Shown here: piece by piece, positions 1-18,118 of the stretch | How the letters are laid out: the number at the start of each line of letters is the position of its first letter | Numbering within the stretch: the stretch's first letter is position 1 | Assembly: GCA_964016885.1 (NCBI GenBank) | Contig: OZ024764.1 | Coordinates: 24,490,001-24,554,000, forward strand | DNA: 64,000 nucleotides | Source of the DNA: Eledone cirrhosa | Taxonomy: Eukaryota | Direction: 5' to 3' | Notes under the pieces: generated by a model | What the model saw: the letters and a program-made list of their open reading frames with translations, nothing else | Told to the model about the DNA's origin: nothing | Database searches by the model: none | Translations under genes and position numbers: made by a program

Positions 1-3000
1 TCCAACGTCTGGAAACTTTTCTGGGAACGTCCCGCTCCTTGCTTTTAGTGGGGGACTGGAATGGTATCCTGGATGCACGTTGGGACTATGTAGGGGCATG
101 TGCCAATAGAGGGGGGTGTAAAAGCCTCAAAAGGTTAATCGGCCGATTTGACCTGGCCGATAGATATCGACTAGATTTTCCGACTGTACCACTATGGACG
201 TGGACCAATCGCAGTGGAACATCTAGGTCGTACCTAGATAGGGTCCTAGTTAGAGAGAACGATAGGGACACATTTAGCTGTCCAAAAATGTTCATGGTTG
301 ACTATTCGGATCACAAGTTAGTGACCTGCATAGCCAACCTTGATAGAACCCATAGACAGGGACCCGGTTACTGGAAGCTGAACTTGTCCTTACCGAGAAG
401 CAAAGCTTACAGTAAACGGATTAGCACGTTAGTTAAGCAGAGTTTGACAGGGGCAATTGTCAACAACAGGTGGTGGAGCTCTCTTAAGAGAGCAATTAGA
501 ATAGAATCGATAGGTTTTAGTCAGGAATTAGCAAGGGATAGGAACAAGACGGAAAGGGAATTAGTAGATAGAGTAGAAGAGGCGATTAGGAGTGGCAATG
601 TAGCCGGCGTGCTGGCATCAAGAATGGCCTTAGACCAGTTCTTTGAGGTGAAGCATGAAGGCTGCGTTGTCAGAAGTAAAATACGTGCTCTGGGTAATGA
701 GGGAGCCAAAGCTGTAAGCTGGGCCCGAGTGACAGAGGCAAAAAGTGGGAACAAGTCCACGATTCGGTCTTTGAAGAACCAGGATGGGCGTGTGATCCTT
801 GAACCTGGGCAGATGTGTGCGGCCTTTCAGCGGCACTTTGCACGACTGTTCGAGAGGGGCGGCGCGCCGGGTGAGACTATGGATTTCAATCCATACCTCG
901 ACGGTCTGCCGCGCCTCTCGGACGCGGAGGCGAAGTCCTGCGAAAGGACGATTTCAGCTGCTGAGATAGGGGCGGCGCTGAGCCAATGCGGCAAACGCAA
1001 ATCCCCGGGTCTCGATGGTCTACCATACGAGCTATATGTAGCAATGCCGGACTTGTTCTCCGATATCCTCGAAGCGGTCTACTGCAACTGGCAGCAGAAC
1101 GGGAGAATTCCCAGTTCTGTGACCAAGGGCGTAGTTACGCTGGTGAGGAAGGATGAGAACAAGGGGGATGACATAAGTAACTTCAGGCCCATAACTCTGC
1201 TAAATACAGAGTTAAAGATTTTGGCCAAGGTGTTAGCGAAGAGGTTGGCGCTTGTCGTTGGAAACCTGGTGGGAGAAGCGCAGACATGCGCAATCCCGTC
1301 CAGGTCCATTCACGACAATCTCCACCTTATGCGATACATCATAGAGAGGGTAGGGAATGAACCCGGCTTTGGTGGGGCCCTGATCAACTTGGATCAATCT
1401 AAAGCTTTCGATAGGGTTGACCATCGTTACCTGGATGCGGTGCTCGCGGCGGCAGGCTTCGGACCCGTTTTCAGGGGTTGGATTGCTGCGATGCACAGCA
1501 GCAACGTCTGCTCAAGGGTCAAGGTGAACGGCCACCTCTCGGAGCCGTTCCAAATCATGCGATCCATCCGACAGGGATGCCCTCTCTCCTCCCTACTGTA
1601 TGTGCTGGCTCTTGAGCCACTACTGCGGAAGTTGGAGCGGTTGCAGGGCATCCCTTTGGAACCGGGATTGCAGAAAGCGGCGTCGGCCTACGCCGATGAC
1701 GTGACAGTAATGGTGTCGAAAACCTCGCAAATCGGTGAGATCGGCACCTTACTGGAGGAATATGAAAGGTTTACAGGAGCCAAGCTGAACCGGGACAAGT
1801 CCGTCGGTTTGCAACTCGGAACATGGAGAGGCAAACCGATGCCCTCCAACGACGTCGTCGGACGCTGGACGGAGGGCCCGGTGAAGCTGCTTGGGGTCTG
1901 GTTCGGACCAGACCTCCAGGTGGAGAAAAACTGGAACGAGGTAACGGCGAGGGTGTTTGCACTCACCCAGAAGTGGGCCCAGTGCAAACTATCCCTGAAA
2001 GGTCGAGCGGAGGTGGCGAATACTTATATAGCATCCGTCATCTACTACCGCTTGACCGTCGTGCCTTGCCCAGTGAAAAGACTCGCCAAAATGGAGTGCG
2101 CGCTGTTCCAATTTTTTTGGAACAAGCGGACCCCTTTGGTGAGGAGATCCATCTGCTGTCAACACCCTTCGAAAGGAGGGCTGGGGATGCCGTGGCTACA
2201 GATGCGTAAACACGCATTAAGGCTACGGCACCTCCAGGTATTCCTCACCGGTCAACCGGTGTGGGCCCCGTTTGTGAGGCGAGCCTTTCCCAGACTCGTC
2301 TCGCTCACCGAGCTGCAATCCTGGGTCAAGCAAAGACCGAGAAAAGTGGGCGACTGGCACATTGAATGTGCCCAGGCGCTCACGGCCCTCTGGAAAGCGG
2401 ACCCGGCAATCAGTGGAGACTCCACCTCGACATTCTATAGAGGGTTGGTACGCAGCAGGTGCGACGATGCTCTCGGAGAAGCTCTAGGCATGGAGGAAGA
2501 TGAACTGGCCAGTCTGTTCGGTAGGACGTTTGGCCCTGGACCGATGGACAACTTCCAAAAGTCCCTGGCTTGGCAGTGCTACCGAGGGGCTCTACCCGTT
2601 CGAGACAAGCTCCACAGGCATGGGAGCCTGGGTAGAGATCCTTTGAATAAGATCTGTCCGAGATGCGTGCATGATGACGAAACCGTTGCGCACGCATTCG
2701 TACACTGCCCAGGCATTGCTGACCTGTGGGGCTATGTGGAACGACTACTGTCGAGGGTGGGACCAATCCGGTTGACCACCGAGTCCATTGTCACGATCAA
2801 ACCGCCTCCCCCTTTCAAAAACGAAGGAGAGGCGGTTTTTCTCTGTGTGGTAGCCATGGCTAAAGAAGTTGTATGGTGGACGAGGCTGAAAGGGCTGAGG
2901 TCAGACACCTTTCTCTCCGGCCAACAACTGGTCCCCTTTTTCAAATACCACTTTAAAAGAAGGATCAGAATGGAGAGAGAGGTGCTCTACCCCAGCAAGT

Positions 3001-3308
3001 TTTATGAAAGGTGGGTGAAAGTAGGGAGAATGGCCAGAGTGAATGGGTCTTCTCTCTATATCAGCCTGTAGGTGAAAGAAGAGGAAAAAGAGGAGACGAG
3101 GGAAGCACCTACTCTTTGTGCTCCTGAGGAGAAGGGTTACACATTTTTTCCGGGGTGTGTGCGACCCATGTTAATGCCCCCTCCCTATTGAGGACTTCGT
3201 TTGTTGTTGTTATTTCATTGTTATATTTTTGTACTCGTTAATTATATGTAAACTTCCCCCCTTGTATCTGTCCCTACCTTTTGTGCCCTAGTGGCAAATA
3301 AAGAAACC
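1..3308 (+). mobile_element. Tx1-clade non-LTR retrotransposon, copy 1 (5' part outside window)
   Basis: ORF2 plus 3' UTR ending GGCAAATAAAGAAACC. About a dozen substitutions by eye versus copy 2 at offset 10615. Confidence 0.95.
3..3071 (+). CDS. ORF2 (partial): AP-endonuclease, reverse transcriptase, C-terminal CCHC zinc finger
   Basis: EN motifs GDWN, LDRVLV, SDH; Tx1-like GPGYWKLN and PSKGGLG; RT motifs KSPGLDG, FRPITLLN, DQSKAFD, QGCPLS, YADD; CPRC...HAFVHC. Frame is open to the window edge. Confidence 0.95.
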   Translation, partial: QRLETFLGTSRSLLLVGDWNGILDARWDYVGACANRGGCKSLKRLIGRFDLADRYRLDFPTVPLWTWTNRSGTSRSYLDRVLVRENDRDTFSCPKMFMVDYSDHKLVTCIANLDRTHRQGPGYWKLNLSLPRSKAYSKRISTLVKQSLTGAIVNNRWWSSLKRAIRIESIGFSQELARDRNKTERELVDRVEEAIRSGNVAGVLASRMALDQFFEVKHEGCVVRSKIRALGNEGAKAVSWARVTEAKSGNKSTIRSLKNQDGRVILEPGQMCAAFQRHFARLFERGGAPGETMDFNPYLDGLPRLSDAEAKSCERTISAAEIGAALSQCGKRKSPGLDGLPYELYVAMPDLFSDILEAVYCNWQQNGRIPSSVTKGVVTLVRKDENKGDDISNFRPITLLNTELKILAKVLAKRLALVVGNLVGEAQTCAIPSRSIHDNLHLMRYIIERVGNEPGFGGALINLDQSKAFDRVDHRYLDAVLAAAGFGPVFRGWIAAMHSSNVCSRVKVNGHLSEPFQIMRSIRQGCPLSSLLYVLALEPLLRKLERLQGIPLEPGLQKAASAYADDVTVMVSKTSQIGEIGTLLEEYERFTGAKLNRDKSVGLQLGTWRGKPMPSNDVVGRWTEGPVKLLGVWFGPDLQVEKNWNEVTARVFALTQKWAQCKLSLKGRAEVANTYIASVIYYRLTVVPCPVKRLAKMECALFQFFWNKRTPLVRRSICCQHPSKGGLGMPWLQMRKHALRLRHLQVFLTGQPVWAPFVRRAFPRLVSLTELQSWVKQRPRKVGDWHIECAQALTALWKADPAISGDSTSTFYRGLVRSRCDDALGEALGMEEDELASLFGRTFGPGPMDNFQKSLAWQCYRGALPVRDKLHRHGSLGRDPLNKICPRCVHDDETVAHAFVHCPGIADLWGYVERLLSRVGPIRLTTESIVTIKPPPPFKNEGEAVFLCVVAMAKEVVWWTRLKGLRSDTFLSGQQLVPFFKYHFKRRIRMEREVLYPSKFYERWVKVGRMARVNGSSLYISL

Positions 3309-4383
3309 ACTCTATATATACTATTGAATTTTCATGGTAAAGGCTTTACCTCACATAATATCTCACATAACATTTACATTACTCTATATATACTATTGTA
3401 TTTTCATGGTAAAGGCTTTACCTCACATAATATCTCACATAACATTTACATTACTCTATATATACTATTGTATTTTCATGGTAAAGGCTTTACCTCACAT
3501 AATATCTCACATAACATTTACATTACTCTATATTTACTATTGTATTGTCACAGTAAAGGCTTTACCTCACATAATATCTCACATAACATTTACATTACTC
3601 TATATATACTATTGTATTGTCACAGTAAAGGCTTTACCTCACATAATATCTCACATAACATTTACATTACTCTATATTTACTATTGTATTGTCACAGTAA
3701 AGGCTTTACCTCACATAATATCTCACATAACATTTACATTACTCTATATATACTATTGTATTTTCACAGTAAAGGCTCTACCTCACATAATATCTCACAT
3801 AATATTTACATTACTCTATATTTACTATTGTATTGTCACAGTAAAGGCTTTACCTCACATAATATCTCACATAACATTTACATTACTCTATATATACTAT
3901 TGTATTTTCACAGTAAAGGCTCTACCTCACATAATATCTCACATAATATTTACATTACTCTATATTTACTATTGTATTGTCACAGTAAAGGCTTTACCTC
4001 ACATAATATCTCACATAACATTTACATTACTCTATATATACTATTGTATTTTCACAGTAAAGGCTTTACCTCACATAATATCTCACATAACATTTACATT
4101 ACTCTATATATACTATTGTATTGTCACAGTAAAGGCTCTACCTCACATAATATCTCACATAACATTTACATTACTCTATATATACTATTGTATTTTCACA
4201 GTAAAGGCTTTACCTCACATAATATCTCACATAACATTTACATTACTCTATATATACTATTGTATTTTCACAGTAAAGGCTCTACCTCACATAATATCTC
4301 ACATAACATTTACATTACTCTATATATACTATTGTATTTTCATGGTAAAGGCTTTACCTCACATAATATCTCACATGACATTT
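3309..4383 (+). repeat. 72-bp tandem array (~15 units) abutting the Tx1 3' end
   Basis: Unit ACTCTATATATACTATTGTATT(T/G)TCACAGTAAAGGCTTTACCTCACATAATATCTCACATAACATTTACATT; lines repeat every 360 bp (5x72). Confidence 0.98.
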
Positions 4384-4520
4384 AATCTGAGATTTTGGTA
4401 TTATTTATTTCGAGAACAATACCTTCACCTAAGTATGAGTGGCCAGTTATAGCCAGTTTGAATAGAAAGAAGTGAGGGAATTCTGGCCGGATATGGCTGG
4501 TTTAAATGCTAAAAGGATAT
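4384..4520. mobile_element. MITE-like arm (~140 bp), putative piggyBac-like (TTAA) non-autonomous element
   Basis: Homologous to 14350-14489 and to the reverse complement of 48446-48584; ends TTTAAATGCTAAAAGGATAT (degenerate terminus). Confidence 0.65.
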
Positions 4521-4890: not shown

Positions 4891-5529
4891 CTGACATGTC
4901 TGTATGTTGTTCTAGAGATCCAGCTGCTATTTCTAGCAGGTCTAGCTACCATCTATAGAACAACTGACATGTCTGTTGTTCTAGAGATCCAGCTGCTATT
5001 TCTAGCAGGTCTAGCTACCATCTATAGACCAACTGACATGTCTGTTGTTCTAGAGATCCAGTTGCTATTTCTAGCAGGTCTAGCTACCATCTATAGAACA
5101 ACTGACATGTCTGTTGTTCTAGAGATCCAGCTGCTATTTCTAGCAGGTCTAGCTACCATCTATAGACCAACTGACATGTCTGTTGTTCTAGAGATCCAAC
5201 TGCTATTTCTAGCAGGTCTAGCTACCATCTATAGAACAACTGACATGTCTGTTGTTCTAGAGATCCAGCTGCTATTTCTAGCAGGTCTAGCTACCATCTA
5301 TAGACCAACTGACATGTCTGTTGTTCTAGAGATCCAGCTGCTATTTCTAGCAGGTCTAGCTACCATCTATAGAACAACTGACATGTCTGTTGTTCTAGAG
5401 ATCCAGTTGTTATTTCTAGCAAGTCTAGCTACCATCTATAGAACAACTGACATGTCTGTTGTTCTAGAGATCCAGTTGTTATTTCTAGCAGGTCTAGCTA
5501 CCATCTATAGAACAACTGACATGTCTGTT
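4891..5529. repeat. 69-bp minisatellite (~9 units)
   Basis: 23-aa periodicity in ORF 4783..5556; a single diverged monomer lies at ~4570-4620. Confidence 0.93.
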
Positions 5530-5698
5530 CTGGTTGAACAAGTAAGGAATGTTTAGTTCTGTTTCTATTTGTGGGGATTAATACCTTGGAGCTTTCATGA
5601 GGCCCCAGCCTGTTATTAGTGTGGCTGGGTGGGGTGTATGTGTGTATGTATATATGTATATATATGTGTGTGTATGTATATATGTTTATGTATGTATG

Positions 5699-7692: not shown

Positions 7693-8291
7693 TCACATAA
7701 TATCCCACATAACATTTACATTACTCTATATATACTATTGTATTTTCACAGTAAAGGCTTTACCGCACATAATATCTCACATAACATTTACATTACTCTA
7801 TATATACTATTGTATTGTCACAGTAAAGGCTTTACCTCACATAATATCTCACATAACATTTACATTACTCTATATATACTATTGTATTGTCACAGTAAAG
7901 GCTTTACCTCACATAATATCTCACATAACATTTACATTACTCTATATATACTATTGTATTGTCACAGTAAAGGCTTTACCTCACATAATATCTCACATAA
8001 CATTTACATTACTCTATATATACTATTGTATTTTCACAGTAAAGGCTTTACCTCACATAATATCTCACATAACATTTACATTACTCTATATATACTATTG
8101 TATTGTCACAGTAAAGGCTTTACCTCACATAATATCTCACATAACATTTACATTACTCTATATATACTATTGTATTGTCACAGTAAAGGCTTTACCTCAC
8201 ATAATATCTCACATAACATTTACATTACTCTATATATACTATTGTATTGTCACAGTAAAGGCTTTACCTCACATAATATCTCACATAACAT
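7693..8291 (+). repeat. 72-bp tandem array (~8.3 units) upstream of Tx1 copy 2
   Basis: Same unit as 3309-4383; ends CACATAACAT at the element 5' end. Confidence 0.98.
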
Positions 8292-8492
8292 CTCGTATAC
8301 GAGAGACGTGTGTGAACAAGCTCGGCTACCGAGTCGGATTTACTTACTCAAAAAGTGAGTTTTGATTAATTTTTTTATACTGTAATATACGTTAACCCCT
8401 TGCCTTGGTCGTCAAACTTTGAGTTTATTTATTTTCGCCCCTTTTTGGGGCGAATTTTCCAGTTAAAAATTTATTACGGCAAACTAATAGAA

Positions 8493-10226
8493 ATGGACGG
8501 AATTTTCACATCTCATCCTAACGTGAAAGCCACGCCCCCTAAGAAAGGTGATACAGAGAAGCTAGAAGCACAAGGCTCTAAGTCTTCCCTCCTCACTTCT
8601 GCAAAAGAAACATGGAACACGGAATTAAAAGAAAAATTTGTAGAAATGGGTGAAAACCCAGAAAGTCACATAAACGCAGACAAAAACATCAACGACAATA
8701 ACAGCAATAGTCACAACACCAACCAAGGAAAAAATAACGATAACACCAAACAAAGTGAACCCACTACTGGTACCTCCTTTGCACAGGCGGTCCGGAAAAC
8801 ACAAACCTGCAAGCAACTGGACATTACAACTCTGAGAGAAAAGATGAAGGAAGCGAAACAGTATGTAACTTTCAAAGAAGGAGGAGACTTCACAATCACC
8901 TCCCCACAAGAAATCAAAAGAGACACGACGCTAAGAACGATATCTTTCAGAACAATTTCCAACATAACAAGGAAACCAACTCAATTATCCCAAAAAGAGA
9001 TTGAGCTGGTCCTAAAAAATGTGTGGAGTGATATATCGTTCATACAAAAAGGGCCACTCTATGGGAATATAACGGTCCTAATGAAGGATCAATTGACGGC
9101 CAGGAAATACTCTGTGGCACCAATTGTTTCCAAGATATATACATTTTTCCCCACATATTTAGGGAAAAGAACGCAGAAGATAAGGGTCTCCGGAATCCGG
9201 CCAAATGCATGCATTTCCTGGGTACTAACAGGATTTTTAGAAGACGAGGACGGAATCCTCTCAGTAGGAGAAGTCACCACAGACGTTTTCGGCGGTTTGA
9301 GCGTGGAGGTTCTGGTCCAAATGAGACCAGAACGAATCGCTAGAATACCACAGAGGGTGTCCCTCGATGGAGAAACATTTATATATATTTCAGCCGAGGG
9401 TAGGAGGCCCATATGTTACTACTGTTCAAGCAGGGGTCATCTAAGGGCTGCTTGTCCTCAATTGACAAAAAAAAAGGCTCTTTTGCCTACACCCCACACA
9501 CCACCACCGCCACCACCACCACCACCACCACCTCCACCACAACAACGACAAAAACAACAGGGAAAAATAACACAAGACACGGCCCCACCCAAAACAACTC
9601 CCAAAACACACACAAATACAACAAAACCCCAAAATACACCACTACCCGACAGCACGGACGAGGACCCAGCGGAAACGGCACCTAGTGACGAAGAGGGGGA
9701 ACCCTTCCAACCTGTAAAAAGGAAAAAAAGAAAGCACCACTCGAACATAAACGAAACAAACACACAACCACCAACAAAAACAAAACAAACAGAACAAACA
9801 AAATCCGCCCCACCCCAAAACATAACACACACAACAAAACGTAAGCACACACAAGAACAACAAACAAACACAACACAAATAAAACAGTATACATACATTA
9901 ACACAAATAACAAAGAACTAGTAAAAACAATACACAAAGACCCTTTGGTGGAAACTGAAGGGCAATTCTTTGCAAGCGCGGCCAACAAACCGCATTTAAA
10001 AATGATAAGACTCCCAATGGACACCTATGCAAAACTAAGAGAGAACTTTCCTGAGGACGTGGGGAAAACATGTACTCGACCCTATAACCGCGTCCTCTTG
10101 AAACGTTTCCCCACCCACACCTCACCAAACACCCCCACTCCACCACAGAACAACACCCCACCAAACAACCCCTCCAATACGCCCATGGATATTGTGCAAC
10201 CTGCTCCTCAGGAGCCGAACAGGTAG
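8493..10226 (+). CDS. ORF1 gag-like nucleic-acid-binding protein (577 aa from first ATG)
   Basis: CCHC knuckle CYYCSSRGHLRAAC, Pro/Thr/Lys-rich low-complexity C-terminal half, basic KRKKRK; position upstream of ORF2. Confidence 0.9.
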   Translation: MDGIFTSHPNVKATPPKKGDTEKLEAQGSKSSLLTSAKETWNTELKEKFVEMGENPESHINADKNINDNNSNSHNTNQGKNNDNTKQSEPTTGTSFAQAVRKTQTCKQLDITTLREKMKEAKQYVTFKEGGDFTITSPQEIKRDTTLRTISFRTISNITRKPTQLSQKEIELVLKNVWSDISFIQKGPLYGNITVLMKDQLTARKYSVAPIVSKIYTFFPTYLGKRTQKIRVSGIRPNACISWVLTGFLEDEDGILSVGEVTTDVFGGLSVEVLVQMRPERIARIPQRVSLDGETFIYISAEGRRPICYYCSSRGHLRAACPQLTKKKALLPTPHTPPPPPPPPPPPPPQQRQKQQGKITQDTAPPKTTPKTHTNTTKPQNTPLPDSTDEDPAETAPSDEEGEPFQPVKRKKRKHHSNINETNTQPPTKTKQTEQTKSAPPQNITHTTKRKHTQEQQTNTTQIKQYTYINTNNKELVKTIHKDPLVETEGQFFASAANKPHLKMIRLPMDTYAKLRENFPEDVGKTCTRPYNRVLLKRFPTHTSPNTPTPPQNNTPPNNPSNTPMDIVQPAPQEPNR

Positions 10227-10247
10227 GTCCTTCCTCTTTTAACCAAC

Positions 10248-13200
10248 ATGGCTGATATAAGAGTTGGGTTTCTGAATGTACGTGGCCTGGGACTGTCTTG
10301 GAAACAAGGCAAACTTTTAAACGATCTCAGGTCACATAGAATGGATGTAATGGCTATTTGCGAGTCCAGGATCAGCAGCGAGCACCAACTGGCGCCCCTC
10401 TTCGACGACTTTGAGATCTTCGCATCTCTCTGTCAACCGGGGGGTGGGGGGGGGAGTTGTCGTTCTGCTGCGAAAACACCTGGGCCTCGCCATACAGAAG
10501 GTGCACCTGGACCCGGAGGGTCGACTGGTGGTTTTAGACGTCGGCAGTAGTGAAAGTGGAGCCCTTAGACTAATAGCTGTGTACGCCCCTTTTTGGGCAG
10601 CGCGGCCGGAATACTTCCAACGTCTGGAAACTTTTCTGGGAACGTCCCGCTCCTTGCTTTTAGTGGGGGACTGGAATGGTATCCTGGATGCACGTTGGGA
10701 CTATGTAGGGGCATGTGCCAATAGAGGGGGGTGTAAAAGCCTCAAAAGGTTAATCGGCCGATTTGACCTGGCCGATAGATATCGACTAGATTTTCCGACT
10801 GTACCACTATGGACGTGGACCAATCGCAGTGGAACATCTAGGTCGTACCTAGATAGGGTCCTAGTTAGAGAGAACGATAGGGACACATTTAGCTGTCCAA
10901 AAATGTTCATGGTTGACTATTCGGATCACAAGTTAGTGACCTGCATAGCCAACCTTGATAGAACCCATAGACAGGGACCCGGTTACTGGAAGCTGAACTT
11001 GTCCTTACCGAGAAGCAAAGCTTACAGTAAACGGATTAGCACGTTAGTTAAGCAGAATTTGACAGGGGCAATTGTCAACAACAGGTGGTGGAGCTCTCTT
11101 AAGAGAGCAATTAGAATAGAATCGATAGGTTTTAGTCAGGAATTAGCAAGGGATAGGAACAAGACGGAAAGGGAATTAGTAGATAGAGTAGAAGAGGCGA
11201 TTAGGAGTGGCAATGTAGCCGGCGTGCTGGCATCAAGAATGGCCTTAGACCAGTTCTTTGAGGTGAAGCATGAAGGCTGCGTTGTCAGGAGTAAAATACG
11301 TGCTCTGGGTAATGAGGGAGCCAAAGCTGTAAGCTGGGCCCGAGTGACAGAGGCAAAAAGTGGGAACAAGTCCACGATTCGGTCTTTGAAGGACCAGGAT
11401 GGGCGTGTGATCCTTGAACCTGGGCAGATGTGTGCGGCCTTTCAGCGGCACTTTGCACGACTGTTCGAGAGGGGCGGCGCGCCGGGTGAGACTATGGATT
11501 TCAATCCATACCTCGACGGTCTGCCGCGCCTCTCGGCCGCGGAGGCGAAGTCCTGCGAAAGGACGATTTCAGCTGCTGAGATAGGGGCGGCGCTGAGCCA
11601 ATGCGGCAAACGCAAATCCCCGGGTCTCGATGGTCTACCATACGAGCTATATGTAGCGATGCCGGACTTGTTCTCCGATATCCTCGAAGCGGTCTACTGC
11701 AACTGGCAGCAGAACGGGAGAATTCCCAGTTCTGTGACCAAGGGCGTAGTTACGCTGGTGAGGAAGGATGAGAACAAGGGGGATGACATAAGTAACTTCA
11801 GGCCCATAACTCTGCTAAATACAGAGTTAAAGATTTTGGCCAAGGTGTTAGCGAAGAGGTTGGCGCTTGTCGTTGGAAACCTGGTGGGAGAAGCGCAGAC
11901 ATGCGCAATCCCGTCCAGGTCCATTCACGACAATCTCCACCTTATGCGATACATCATAGAGAGGGTAGGGAATGAACCCGGCTTTGGTGGGGCCCTGATC
12001 AACTTGGATCAATCTAAAGCTTTCGATAGGGTTGACCATCGTTACCTGGATGCGGTGCTCGCGGCGGCAGGCTTCGGACCCGTTTTCAGGGGTTGGATTG
12101 CTGCGATGCACAGCAGCAACGTCTGTTCAAGGGTCAAGGTGAACGGCCACCTCTCGGAGCCGTTCCAAATCATGCGATCCATCCGACAGGGATGCCCTCT
12201 CTCCTCCCTACTGTATGTGCTGGCTCTTGAGCCACTACTGCGGAAGTTGGAGCGGTTGCAGGGCATCCCTTTGGAACCGGGATTGCAGAAAGCGGCGTCG
12301 GCCTACGCCGATGACGTGACAGTAATGGTGTCGAAAACCTCGCAAATCGGTGAGATCGGCACCTTACTGGAGGAATATGAAAGGTTTACAGGAGCCAAGC
12401 TGAACCGGGACAAGTCCGTCGGTTTGCAACTCGGAACATGGAGAGGCAAACCGATGCCCTCCAACGACGTCGTCGGACGCTGGACGGAGGGCCCGGTGAA
12501 GCTGCTTGGGGTCTGGTTCGGACCAGACCTCCAGGTGGAGAGAAACTGGAACGAGGTAACGGCCAGGGTGTTTGCACTCACCCAGAAGTGGGCCCAGTGC
12601 AAACTATCCCTGAAAGGTCGAGCGGAGGTGGCGAATACTTATATAGCATCCGTCATCTACTACCGCTTGACCGTCGTGCCTTGCCCAGTGAAAAGACTCG
12701 CCAAAATGGAGTGCGCGCTGTTCCAATTTCTTTGGAACAAGCGGACCCCTTTGGTGAGGAGATCCATCTGCTGTCAACACCCTTCGAAAGGAGGGCTGGG
12801 GATGCCGTGGCTACAGATGCGTAAACACGCATTAAGGCTACGGCACCTCCAGGTATTCCTCACCGGTCAACCGGTGTGGGCCCCGTTTGTGAGGCGAGCC
12901 TTTCCCAGACTCGTCTCGCTCACCGAGCTGCAATCCTGGGTCAAGCAAAGACCGAGAAAAGTGGGCGACTGGCACATTGAATGTGCCCAGGCGCTCACGG
13001 CCCTCTGGAAAGCGGACCCGGCAATCAGTGGAGACTCCACCTCGACATTCTATAGAGGGTTGGTACGCAGCAGGTGCGACGATGCTCTCGGAGAAGCTCT
13101 AGGCATGGAGGAAGAGGAACTGGCCAGTCTGTTCGGTAGGACGTTTGGCCCTGGACCGATGGACAACTTCCAAAAGTCCCTGGCTTGGCAGTGCTACCGA

Positions 13201-13686
13201 GGGGCTCTACCCGTTCGAGACAAGCTCCACAGGCATGGGAGCCTGGGTAGAGATCCTTTGAATAAGATCTGTCCGAGATGCGTGCATGATGACGAAACCG
13301 TTGCGCACGCATTCGTACACTGCCCAGGCATTGCTGACCTGTGGGGCTATGTGGAACGACTACTGTCGAGGGTGGGACCAATCCGGTTGACCACCGAGTC
13401 CATTGTCACGATCAAACCGCCTCCCCCTTTCAAAAACGAAGGAGAGGCGGTTTTTCTCTGTGTGGTAGCCATGGCTAAAGAAGTTGTATGGTGGACGAGG
13501 CTGAAAGGGCTGAGGTCAGACACCTTTCTCTCCGGCCAACAACTGGTCCCCTTTTTCAAATACCATTTTAAAAGAAGGATCAGAATGGAGAGAGAGGTGC
13601 TCTACCCCAGCAAGTTTTATGAAAGGTGGGTGAAAGTAGGGAGAATGGCCAGAGTGAATGGGTCTTCTCTCTATATCAGCCTGTAG
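10248..13686 (+). CDS. ORF2 EN-RT-zinc finger, ~1145 aa if one extra G in the G-run at ~10439-10454 is removed
   Basis: ORF 10248 gives the EN N-terminus (MADIRVGFLNVRGL...ICES); ORF 10411..13686 continues GVVVLL...GDWN...SDH...YADD one frame over. Confidence 0.92.
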
Positions 13687-13923
13687 GTGAAAGAAGAGGA
13701 AAAAGCGGAGACGAGGGAAGCACCTACTCTTTGTGCTCCTGAGGAGAAGGGTTACACATTTTTTCCGGGGTGTGTGCGACCCATGTTAATGCCCCCTCCC
13801 TATTGAGGACTTCGTTTGTTGTTGTTATTTCATTGTTATATTTTTGTACTCGTTAATTATATGTAAACTTCCCCCCTTGTATCTGTCCCTACCTTTTGTG
13901 CCCTAGTGGCAAATAAAGAAACC

Positions 13924-14349
13924 ACTCTATATATACTATTGTATTTTCACAGTAAAGGCTTTACCTCACATAATATCTCACATAACATTTACATTACTCT
14001 ATATATACTATTGTATTGTCACAGTAAAGGCTTTACCTCACATAATATCTCACATAACATTTACATTACTCTATATATACTATTGTATTTTCACAGTAAA
14101 GGCTTTACCTCACATAATATCTCACATAACATTTACATTACTCTATATATACTATTGTATTGTCACAGTAAAGGCTTTACCTCACATAATATCTCACATA
14201 ACATTTACATTACTCTATATATACTATTGTATTGTCACAGTAAAGGCTTTACCTCACATAATATCTCACATAACATTTACATTACTCTATATATACTATT
14301 GTATTTTCACAGTAAAGGCTTTACCTCACATAATATCTCACATAACATT
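13924..14349 (+). repeat. 72-bp tandem array (~6 units) downstream of Tx1 copy 2
   Basis: Same unit and same junction (GAAACC|ACTCTATAT) as copy 1. Confidence 0.98.
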
Positions 14350-14489
14350 GAATCTATGAGATTTTGATGTTATTTATTTTGAGAACAATGTCATAACATC
14401 AGTATGAGTGGCCAGCTACAGCCGGTTTGAACAGAAAGAGGTGAGAGAATTCTGGCTGAATACAGAAGGTTGAAATGCTAAAGGATTAA
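14350..14489. mobile_element. MITE-like arm ending AAATGCTAAAGGATTAA
   Basis: ~80% identical by hand alignment to 4384-4520; terminal TTAA at 14486-14489. Confidence 0.7.
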
Positions 14490-16854: not shown

Positions 16855-18118
16855 ATCATCATCATCATCATCATCATCAGGTTTAGCGTCCGTGTTCCAC
16901 GCTTGCATGGGTTTGGACGGGGGTTTTCCCACTTGAGGCAAGAGTGGTTGTCTTGCTCGCATAGGACTGTCTGGCGGGTTTTCTACAGTTGGATGCCCTT
17001 CCTAACACCAACCACATTTACAGTGTGGGGCTGGGAGGTTTTTACCGTGTTGCCTACACGGCCACATTACAGCGTGGACTGTCTGGCGGGTTTTCTACAG
17101 CTGGATGCCCTTCCTAACACCAACCACATTTACAGTGTGGGGCTGGGAGGTTTTTACCGTGTTGCCTACACGGCCACATTTACAGCGTGGACTGTGTGTT
17201 TTTTTGTTGTGACACCTACACGATCTCATTTGTTTCGGCCTGGATGTTGTGGGACCAACATAATTGTACATTGAAAGGGGCGGTGTGGATGGGGTGGAGG
17301 TGGTGGGACCGGGGGGTGTTTTGATAGAGATGCCTACTGACTGTAGTAGGTTTTTACTTTGTATTTAGGTAAGGCGGGTCTTCTCTATTACTGAGTACCG
17401 CCAAAGGTCTCGGTCCAGTGACATTGTCTTGGAGAGGTGTAAGCGTGTGAGGTCGGAATTTATCAGCTCGTCCCAGGTTTTTCTAGGTCTGCCTATTCCG
17501 TGGCTACCATCTATCTTTATTGCCCTGCACTTTGTTATACAGCTGTCGACTTTCATGCGCATCACGTGACCGTACCAACGTAGCCTTCTCTCGAGTAAAC
17601 AACATCTGATCCCTCTTATTTCTAATTTTTTCCTTAGTTCGTTTATGCTTTGCCGTTCACGTATGTTACTATTGCACATCCAGCGGAGCATGCAAGCTTC
17701 GTTCCTCTCTAGTCTGCGTATATCCTCTGCACACAATGCCCAGGTCTCACTGCCATGCAGCATTGCTGTTCGTATGCAGGCATCGTATAACCTGCCTTTC
17801 ATTTTTAGGGAGAACCCTAAAGCGGCTAATAGTGGTATAAGCTCTCTGAACTTTTTCCATCCAGTTCTGACTCTAGCTACTGTACTTTCAGAGCACCCTC
17901 CCCCACTGCTGATTTTGTCACCCAGGTAACGGAAGCTGTCCACTATCTCTATAGAACCCTCTGCGCAGTTGAAGGAGCTAGTATTTTGTGGGCACTTGCT
18001 GCTACTTATTGCACCAGAGCACCGGCCACATGTAAAATCTATGTTCTTAGTTAGCTTACCTGTGATCCCACTACATCTTTTATGCACCCATACTTTGCAT
18101 TTGGGACATAAAATGGAG
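16855..18118 (-). mobile_element. 5'-truncated RTE LINE with a duplicated 112-bp 3' UTR module
   Basis: ORF 17365..18087(-): HKRC...CGRC, VDSFRYLGD, MLHGSETW, RRLRWYGH, GRPRKTW; (CAT)n tail on the + strand. Confidence 0.92.

Follow-up and report, generated by a model that had tools for sequence, protein, structure and literature searches.

One important question raised by a 64,000-nucleotide stretch of DNA from Eledone cirrhosa (contig OZ024764.1, positions 24,490,001 to 24,554,000 of the forward strand; hereafter the window) is why three copies of one long interspersed nuclear element (LINE) lie in it at exactly the same phase of a 72-bp tandem repeat. The window is part of contig C25 in a genome of 3.0 Gb, and the genome-wide counts given below cover that genome. 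The five junctions of the three copies described in the initial annotation were all recovered inside 72-bp arrays, at the positions listed in Table 1. The explanation that we consider probable is that a young, site-specific LINE of the L1/Tx1 kind, with an apurinic/apyrimidinic endonuclease (APE), inserts into the inner repeat of a miniature inverted-repeat transposable element (MITE), and that a target copy of 25–29 bases on its RNA likely gives complete copies their precise 5' end.

Site specificity of the LINE

Unit positions are numbered from the first base beyond the LINE 3' end (position 0, window 13924). The exact 27-base pattern of the LINE 3' end has 344 matches in the whole genome, and 337 LINE 3' ends continue exactly into the first 8 bases of the 72-bp unit, the latter count having been obtained with a pattern 4 bases shorter on the element side. 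The first 100 of the 344 ends were inspected; 94 were exact in both patterns and two lay in variant units (L099 and L194). The remaining four belong outside the family, three of them to members of a sister family (L182, L190 and L191) and one to a 44-base fragment with a sister-type tail (L214). Insertion at a single phase, proposed from the window, therefore holds for the genome, and the copies do not lie mostly in unrelated flanks. At the 5' end, the junction was identical in the best 30 of 30 head matches, at unit position 64, which is 7 bases before the next unit start, and L076 was the single variant among the other loci; the 5' query contained no flanking sequence, and the genome-wide figure for this junction rests on sampled loci. 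There are 305 exact 5' heads in the whole genome, against 344 exact 3' ends.

The intact unit junction was matched exactly at 28,775 places in the genome, about one position per 100,000, so that the fixed site of the LINE is not a matter of chance. The LINE is strongly site-specific, and the family is real and recently active, as the initial annotation had supposed: its copies are spread over many contigs, have a mean identity of 98.1% over the last kilobase, and retain both open reading frames (ORFs) open in 11 of 85 cases. The copies studied here were drawn from contigs C1–C10 through exact or near-exact 3' ends.

The target is the inner repeat of a TTAA-flanked MITE

Beyond the arrays lie arms of a single MITE family, homologous from locus to locus, which terminate in 13-bp inverted repeats and TTAA; the outer flanks had first been taken to differ. 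The exact left end of this MITE has 1,529 matches genome-wide, the first 30 of which comprise 27 single-unit elements, two long arrays and one LINE locus. Most of the 27 single-unit MITEs are about 216–229 bp long, with TTAA on both sides and ends starting with CCC, and in some the right end is lost, interrupted or decayed. A piggyBac-type non-autonomous element is marked by flanking TTAA, by short inverted ends that begin with CCC and by the lack of coding capacity, and by these sequence features the target MITE is classed as piggyBac-like. A Kolobok/T2-type MITE was also considered and rejected; this type needs RR (AG) terminal bases at the TTAA, according to the parts of PMC6004289 drawn on here, and the target MITE starts with CCC.

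The 72-bp minisatellite is a tandemly amplified inner segment of the MITE and not a free minisatellite. Amplification of MITE inner segments into tandem arrays is a known process, described for Xmix/Xstir (PMC6004289) and miDNA4 (PMC12628747) of Xenopus in the parts of these papers drawn on here. Xmix is likewise flanked by TTAA; it differs in having AG ends (Kolobok type) instead of CCC, and no LINE is invoked in those parts of the papers. The initial annotation had not recognised the kind of target; the inner repeat of a TTAA MITE makes it a parallel to the pair Tx1L/Tx1D, which is taken up below.

It had also been stated that no 72-bp array lacks an element. This is correct within the window and fails beyond it: a LINE-free array of about 25 units sits 6–8 kb upstream of the window, and the LINE end was absent from the 3-kb stretch at all 19 array loci displayed (two of which are the same array). 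Arrays without the LINE are common. Among the first 100 matches of each, the LINE was found on the largest contigs almost only in the outer 30–80 Mb, and exact MITE left ends were found along the whole of C1.

A different element was observed downstream of the LINE, 15 bases into a unit (L052, L055, L083 and L086), having entered the unit at one and the same point in two loci. It resembles Helentron/DINE-type repeats. The 72-bp unit may be a preferred site of this second element.

A sister family enters (TCTA)n-like repeats

A related LINE family is present in the same genome; this sister family shares about 81% identity with the focal one at the DNA level and 84–88% in the reverse transcriptase protein. 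It enters (TCTA)n-like sequence at all 29 correctly oriented loci (30 were sampled, L279 being left out). At least 6 sister copies truncated within the last 1.6 kb have the same repeat or a 12–16-base duplication on the 5' side, and one or the other also precedes the head of L190. Truncation is more frequent in the sister family than in the focal one. The focal site resembles the (TCTA)n motif, which makes it likely that a small shift of target led from a relative inserting into (TCTA)n to the focal family, as judged from these sequences.

Complete and truncated copies differ at the 5' junction

The DNA upstream of 96 family 3' ends was analysed; 91 reach the head, four are truncated and one (L077) is unclear. 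The truncated copies (L199, L213, L179 and L198) have target duplications of 2, 6, 9 and 13 bases and no deletion. These duplications begin at unit position 0; one of the copies is 5'-inverted, and L199 sits in an old, divergent single-unit MITE. The bottom-strand cut that had been predicted at the unit start agrees with these four copies. Complete copies, in contrast to truncated ones, show a precise net loss of 7 target bases, without junction variation in 30 of 30.

For the comparison of flanking units 85 copies were used, elements with less than 250 bases of flank or with a variant junction being left out. In the unit adjoining the head, positions 36–64 differed from the yardstick at 12 of 2438 bases, against 196 of 8495 in five neighbour units, namely the two before the head-adjoining unit and the three after the element (Fisher p = 7e-11); positions 0–35 of the same unit varied as in other units (p = 1.0 and 0.70). 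Variants shared by the neighbours passed into positions 36–64 of the head-adjoining unit in 0/4, 0/6 and 0/9 cases, compared with 4/9, 4/11, 4/7 and 3/6 in the controls. Single loci show the same boundary: in L089, L067 and L181 the first half of the head-adjoining unit still shows the variants of its array, which disappear only over the final ~29 bases. In L181 this unit also has a 12-base piece that is absent from 9 other upstream units and from the next 4 downstream units.

A nearly invariant stretch of about 29 bases that ignores local variants, together with the duplications of the truncated copies, suggests that the RNA carries a target-copy leader. We infer from these copy statistics that the LINE RNA likely starts with about 25–29 target bases, which overwrite the local ones, and that the fixed 5' junction is most likely the end of this element-borne target copy and not a cut site. 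Such a leader would account for the precise junction and for the intact 5' end of nine in ten copies.

Insertion could then proceed as follows. The endonuclease would nick the bottom strand at unit position 0, or at most about 8 bases after it; the first 8 downstream unit bases show 1 difference in 582, and host variants appear from position 8 onward. Reverse transcription would begin on RNA ending in or near target sequence, with no poly(A) copied. The complementary DNA (cDNA) of the RNA 5' end would carry the leader, pair with positions -36 to -8 of the upstream unit and replace the paired bases, by which 7 bases would be removed. Truncated cDNAs, having no leader, would be completed after a top-strand cut 2–13 bases downstream, giving a normal duplication.

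Several further observations were made on the 5' end. The head opens with a 12-base palindrome (window 8292–8303). Folded together, the leader and the 110 bases after it reach z -2.15, the leader pairing with the 5' untranslated region around the palindrome (window 8262–8400), which is a weak hint only. By eye, the first ~15 bases of the head resemble the MITE sequence that follows the terminal unit, a hint that the head began as MITE sequence. A search for a 5'-end ribozyme in Rfam returned five matches with E 2.4–4.2, all well under the gathering scores. A general 65-bp duplication in place of the 7-base loss was considered and discarded, the units flanking the LINE being no more alike than other neighbours, and no sign of whole-unit 3' transduction was seen in the 85 copies.

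Does the LINE also build the arrays?

The mechanism proposed above might be extended, although we think this rather unlikely, if the LINE machinery also makes and spreads the arrays; this would add to the explanation and not replace it. In that case, pairing of the cDNA with a downstream unit would duplicate entire units, and single-unit MITEs would gain a unit from short copies of either array RNA or read-through RNA, so that the element would make its own targets. At three diagnostic sites the inner units of LINE loci do share one genome-wide type (66, 75 and 76 of 77 loci), which is uncommon among single-unit MITEs (1, 3 and 13 of 25), a comparison weakened by the different sampling routes for single-unit MITEs and for arrays. 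This is so although the arms of the hosts are old and related in a star-like manner, with no clear subfamily. In addition, 15 of 49 left arms carry variants in the 10 bases shared with the unit junction, and none of 18 such variants is present in half of the junctions. Repeats across the LINE point the same way: the five upstream units of L089 equal its first five downstream units, with 38 shared and 0 unshared variants (permutation p = 5e-5), five units are likewise repeated across the LINE in L071 (p = 0.004), and in L196, whose MITE has a single unit on each side, a repeat of 34–51 bases flanks the LINE.

However, multi-unit block duplications are not in excess at the LINE, having been counted at 2 of 41 of its junctions, compared with 13 of 351 ordinary junctions within arrays, and the first units flanking the LINE were identical in 3 of 72 cases, against 5/60 and 5/61 for other neighbours. 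The first downstream unit is no more element-like past its first 8 bases, and the same data fit ectopic gene conversion, an old multi-unit MITE subfamily or a preference of the LINE for the common type. If array building were nevertheless true, the LINE would farm its habitat, turning single-unit MITEs into arrays and spreading one unit type over thousands of old MITEs on all chromosomes. A dispersed minisatellite of 2 Mb, with at least 28,775 unit junctions, would then be a by-product of site-specific retrotransposition, a conclusion that we regard as doubtful.

Other origins of the fixed junctions

The invariant bases before the head might instead reflect selection of the site by the protein, with no leader on the RNA. 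The protein would require a near-perfect match over about 40 bases upstream of the nick and would cut the top strand 7 bases upstream, so that only perfect units are hit, each with a loss of 7 bases. No extra RNA would then be needed to account for the constant 5' junction and for the scarcity of variants just before the head, and copies do favour arrays of the common unit type. Two of the 85 copies, L167 and L176, retain a local short form of the unit beside the head, which limits the element-derived bases there to at most ~17. On the other hand, a top-strand cut 7 bases upstream does not account for the duplications, in place of a deletion, in four of four truncated copies, and a requirement for perfect units does not account for the loss of local variants in only the last ~29 bases of L089, L067 and L181; the truncated copy L199, in its divergent host, would indicate that nicking proceeds without a perfect upstream match. 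We consider this explanation unlikely, somewhat more so than array building by the LINE.

Besides the short units of L167 and L176, other points weigh against a leader-bearing LINE that has inserted repeatedly and independently. The counts of neighbour variants are small; no leader-bearing copy outside a MITE was found among the studied copies from C1–C10; and older and odd copies are under-sampled by the selection through 3' ends. Some sampled loci are mutual segmental duplicates, such as L164/L165 with a flank in common, and the similarity of arms and of LINEs is correlated, weakly (rho 0.18, pairs not independent).

Independence of the insertions was assessed at 32 loci with a whole MITE right arm. 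Compared pairwise, the right arms are 84.5% alike (75.5–96.1), against 98.7% for the last 300 bases of the LINE. The hosts are thus much older than the LINE; its insertions are independent and recent, and it did not ride with the MITE. Descent of the copies from one ancestral MITE insertion, multiplied as a composite by MITE transposition or by segmental duplication and unequal crossing-over, with inherited junctions, would account for completeness and identical junctions and does happen locally (copies 1 and 2, the flank of L164/L165, the runs on C1 and C10 described below), but as a general account it is highly improbable, and as the main route composite transposition is largely ruled out by this age gap, array-bearing and single-unit MITE arms being moreover equally distant (84.0, 83.7 and 83.6% between), the LINE lying at differing unit numbers in differing hosts, and truncated and 5'-inverted copies with duplications of their own representing separate retrotransposition events.

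Local duplication was nevertheless found in the window itself. Window 3309–10615 matches sequence lying 10,614 bp upstream on the contig, with 99.89% identity over 7,307 bp, and copies 1 and 2 have the same 5' flanks; they are therefore one insertion, duplicated in tandem (10.6 kb), contrary to the initial view that segmental duplication was not involved. Elsewhere, LINE copies follow one another head to tail within one array, six or more in the longest runs and 1–20 units apart, as observed at C1:4.22–4.26 Mb and at C10:40.72–40.75 Mb and 41.38–41.42 Mb. L164 and L165, inverted and about 44 kb apart on C1, have a common non-MITE upstream flank and unlike downstream arrays, a pattern that indicates ectopic recombination or else 5' transduction. 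Among L161–L220, internal deletions with both ends retained were seen in about 20 of 52 copies that have the head.

Clade assignment and comparison with known systems

ORF2 has an N-terminal APE endonuclease followed by the reverse transcriptase, the order found in the Tx1 clade. The reverse transcriptase is of the L1 group and not of the R2 kind: among solved relatives human L1 ORF2p scores best (E 6e-51), and R2 proteins come after it (E 2e-23). The usual APE catalytic motifs and the motif YADD were found in the ORF2 of an intact copy. Copy 2 itself is frameshifted in ORF2 within a G run near 10445–10458, and intact copies elsewhere encode 1,143–1,145 amino acids (aa). In ORF1, the CCHC zinc knuckle matches PF00098 in a domain search (E 0.007, under the curated cut-off), and the N-terminal half is similar to RRM+CCHC (ZCCHC3-like) clusters; Atlas look-alikes with zf-CCHC and ZCCHC3-type RNA-binding domains score 0.90–0.93. 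Tx1 ORF1 proteins have a CCHC zinc knuckle, unlike the ORF1 of vertebrate L1. The closest named protein is a hypothetical protein of Argonauta hians, 64–68% identical, and no Tx1-named sequence was present among the relatives returned by the protein searches. The build (APE with L1-group reverse transcriptase, CCHC-bearing ORF1 and target preference) fits Tx1, a label given here on architecture.

For the published systems compared below, the statements refer to the parts of the cited papers drawn on here. Tx1L is an APE LINE found at a specific site of Tx1D, a non-autonomous piggyBac-type DNA transposon of Xenopus laevis (PMC4494074, PMC1950540). The focal LINE is like it in being an APE LINE nested at a fixed site of a piggyBac-type non-autonomous transposon; it differs in phylum and target, and its complete copies have a net loss of 7 bases and a putative leader, with no fixed duplication. 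The Tx1L site we take to lie in an inner tandem repeat of Tx1D and to be duplicated over 23 bp. In crocodilians, the Tx1 families Tx1-Mar and Tx1-9_AMi insert preferentially into non-autonomous DNA transposons of old age, Mariner-N4_AMi and Harbinger (PMC4494074); they prefer regions and not one phase of a tandem unit, and a target-copy leader is not described in those parts of that paper. Microsatellites are targeted by the Tx1 families Kibi and Koshi and by crocodilian (TTCC)n/(TTTC)n families (PMC4494074). The sister family, entering (TCTA)n, resembles them, and the focal family differs in using a similar motif inside a MITE.

Closer parallels for the 5' end come from other clades. In R1A of the melanogaster group, which inserts in 28S ribosomal DNA (rDNA), complete copies have a precise 9-bp target deletion without 5' variation, 6–27 upstream target bases on the RNA explain the junction, and all truncated copies have duplications (PMC2718515). 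The small precise deletion in complete copies and the duplications in truncated ones are common to both; R1A belongs to the R1 clade and to rDNA, and its rearranged junctions and leader-bearing off-target copies were not found in the focal family. The RNA of R2Bm retains 27 upstream target bases, which are proposed to invade the target and are needed for complete insertion (PMC6895275), but R2Bm has a restriction-like endonuclease, one ORF and a ribozyme-processed rRNA co-transcript. By analogy, a leader mechanism is thus known in kind from R1A and R2Bm, and the nesting parallels Tx1L/Tx1D. No description of a target-copy leader for Tx1-type elements, nor of the focal LINE family or its target, was found in the literature searched, Repbase and Dfam lying outside that search. 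In Octopus vulgaris, 13 recently active L1-Tx1 families with 421 insertions have been reported, targets not being given in the parts drawn on here (PMC13282606); the supplement of that paper may hold the focal family.

The locus offers a living invertebrate parallel to the nesting of Tx1L in Tx1D, and its LINE would be, with R2Bm and Drosophila R1A before it, a third lineage whose 5' end appears to be joined by means of a target copy carried on the RNA. Completion of the 5' end by an APE LINE becomes testable here, with a relative that uses another target, copies with open ORFs, and variable units that mark RNA-derived and target-derived bases. Gene insertion in cephalopods could also profit from an element that inserts precisely, for the most part in complete form, and has tens of thousands of harmless sites at its disposal.

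Organisation of the window

The features of the three LINE copies and of their hosts are collected in Table 1. Copy 3 consists of element bases 1–863 fused to 5305–5632.

Table 1. LINE copies, arrays and MITE arms in the window (positions counted from its first base)
Feature	Positions	Strand	Description
LINE copy 1, 3' part	1..3308	+	Tandem duplicate of copy 2, 99.6% identity; head 2.3 kb upstream of the window start
72-bp array after copy 1	3309..4384	+	14.9 units, then degenerate MITE right arm; within the 10,614-bp duplicated block
Upstream 72-bp array, copy 2	7693..8291	+	8.3 units, Tandem Repeats Finder (TRF); MITE left arm absent here
Putative element-borne leader, copy 2	8263..8291	+	About 25–29 bases, unit positions 36–64, 7 bases before next unit start
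LINE copy 2	8292..13923	+	5,632 bp; AATAAA shortly before the 3' end, which has no poly(A) tail
ORF1	8493..10226	+	577 aa, single CCHC zinc knuckle at aa 307–323
ORF2	10239..13686	+	APE endonuclease, reverse transcriptase (YADD), C-terminal zinc motif; PF03372 and PF00078
Downstream 72-bp array, copy 2	13924..14349	+	5.9 units, TRF; 13924 is unit position 0, the insertion site
Host MITE right arm	14350..14489	+	Ends in terminal inverted repeat and TTAA; read against single-unit MITEs
Array downstream of copy 3	48585..50964	-	72- and 60-bp units, then MITE right arm
LINE copy 3	50965..52145	-	Internal deletion, both ends retained; inverted
Array upstream of copy 3	52146..52998	-	Begins at degenerate MITE left end; TRF array 52146–52949

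In three DNA-like runs from one organism, contigs spanned all 30 bins and empty units were present, and a further run, possibly of RNA, yielded only scraps; no inference is drawn from these data.

Other tandem arrays were also observed in the window. A 16.6-kb array with a TG/TA-rich unit of 20–22 bp occupies 22232–38833, broken near 27430–28720, and is followed by 3.6 kb of (CAC)n at 38905–42475 and then by arrays of 15, 45 and 57 bp. Arrays with a 112-bp unit lie at 16964–17195 and 54816–55158, and one with a 48-bp unit at 53483–54120. The 112- and 48-bp units we take, from their look, to be pieces of common octopus repeats of the short interspersed nuclear element type, and by this presumed resemblance other small elements would form arrays in the window too.

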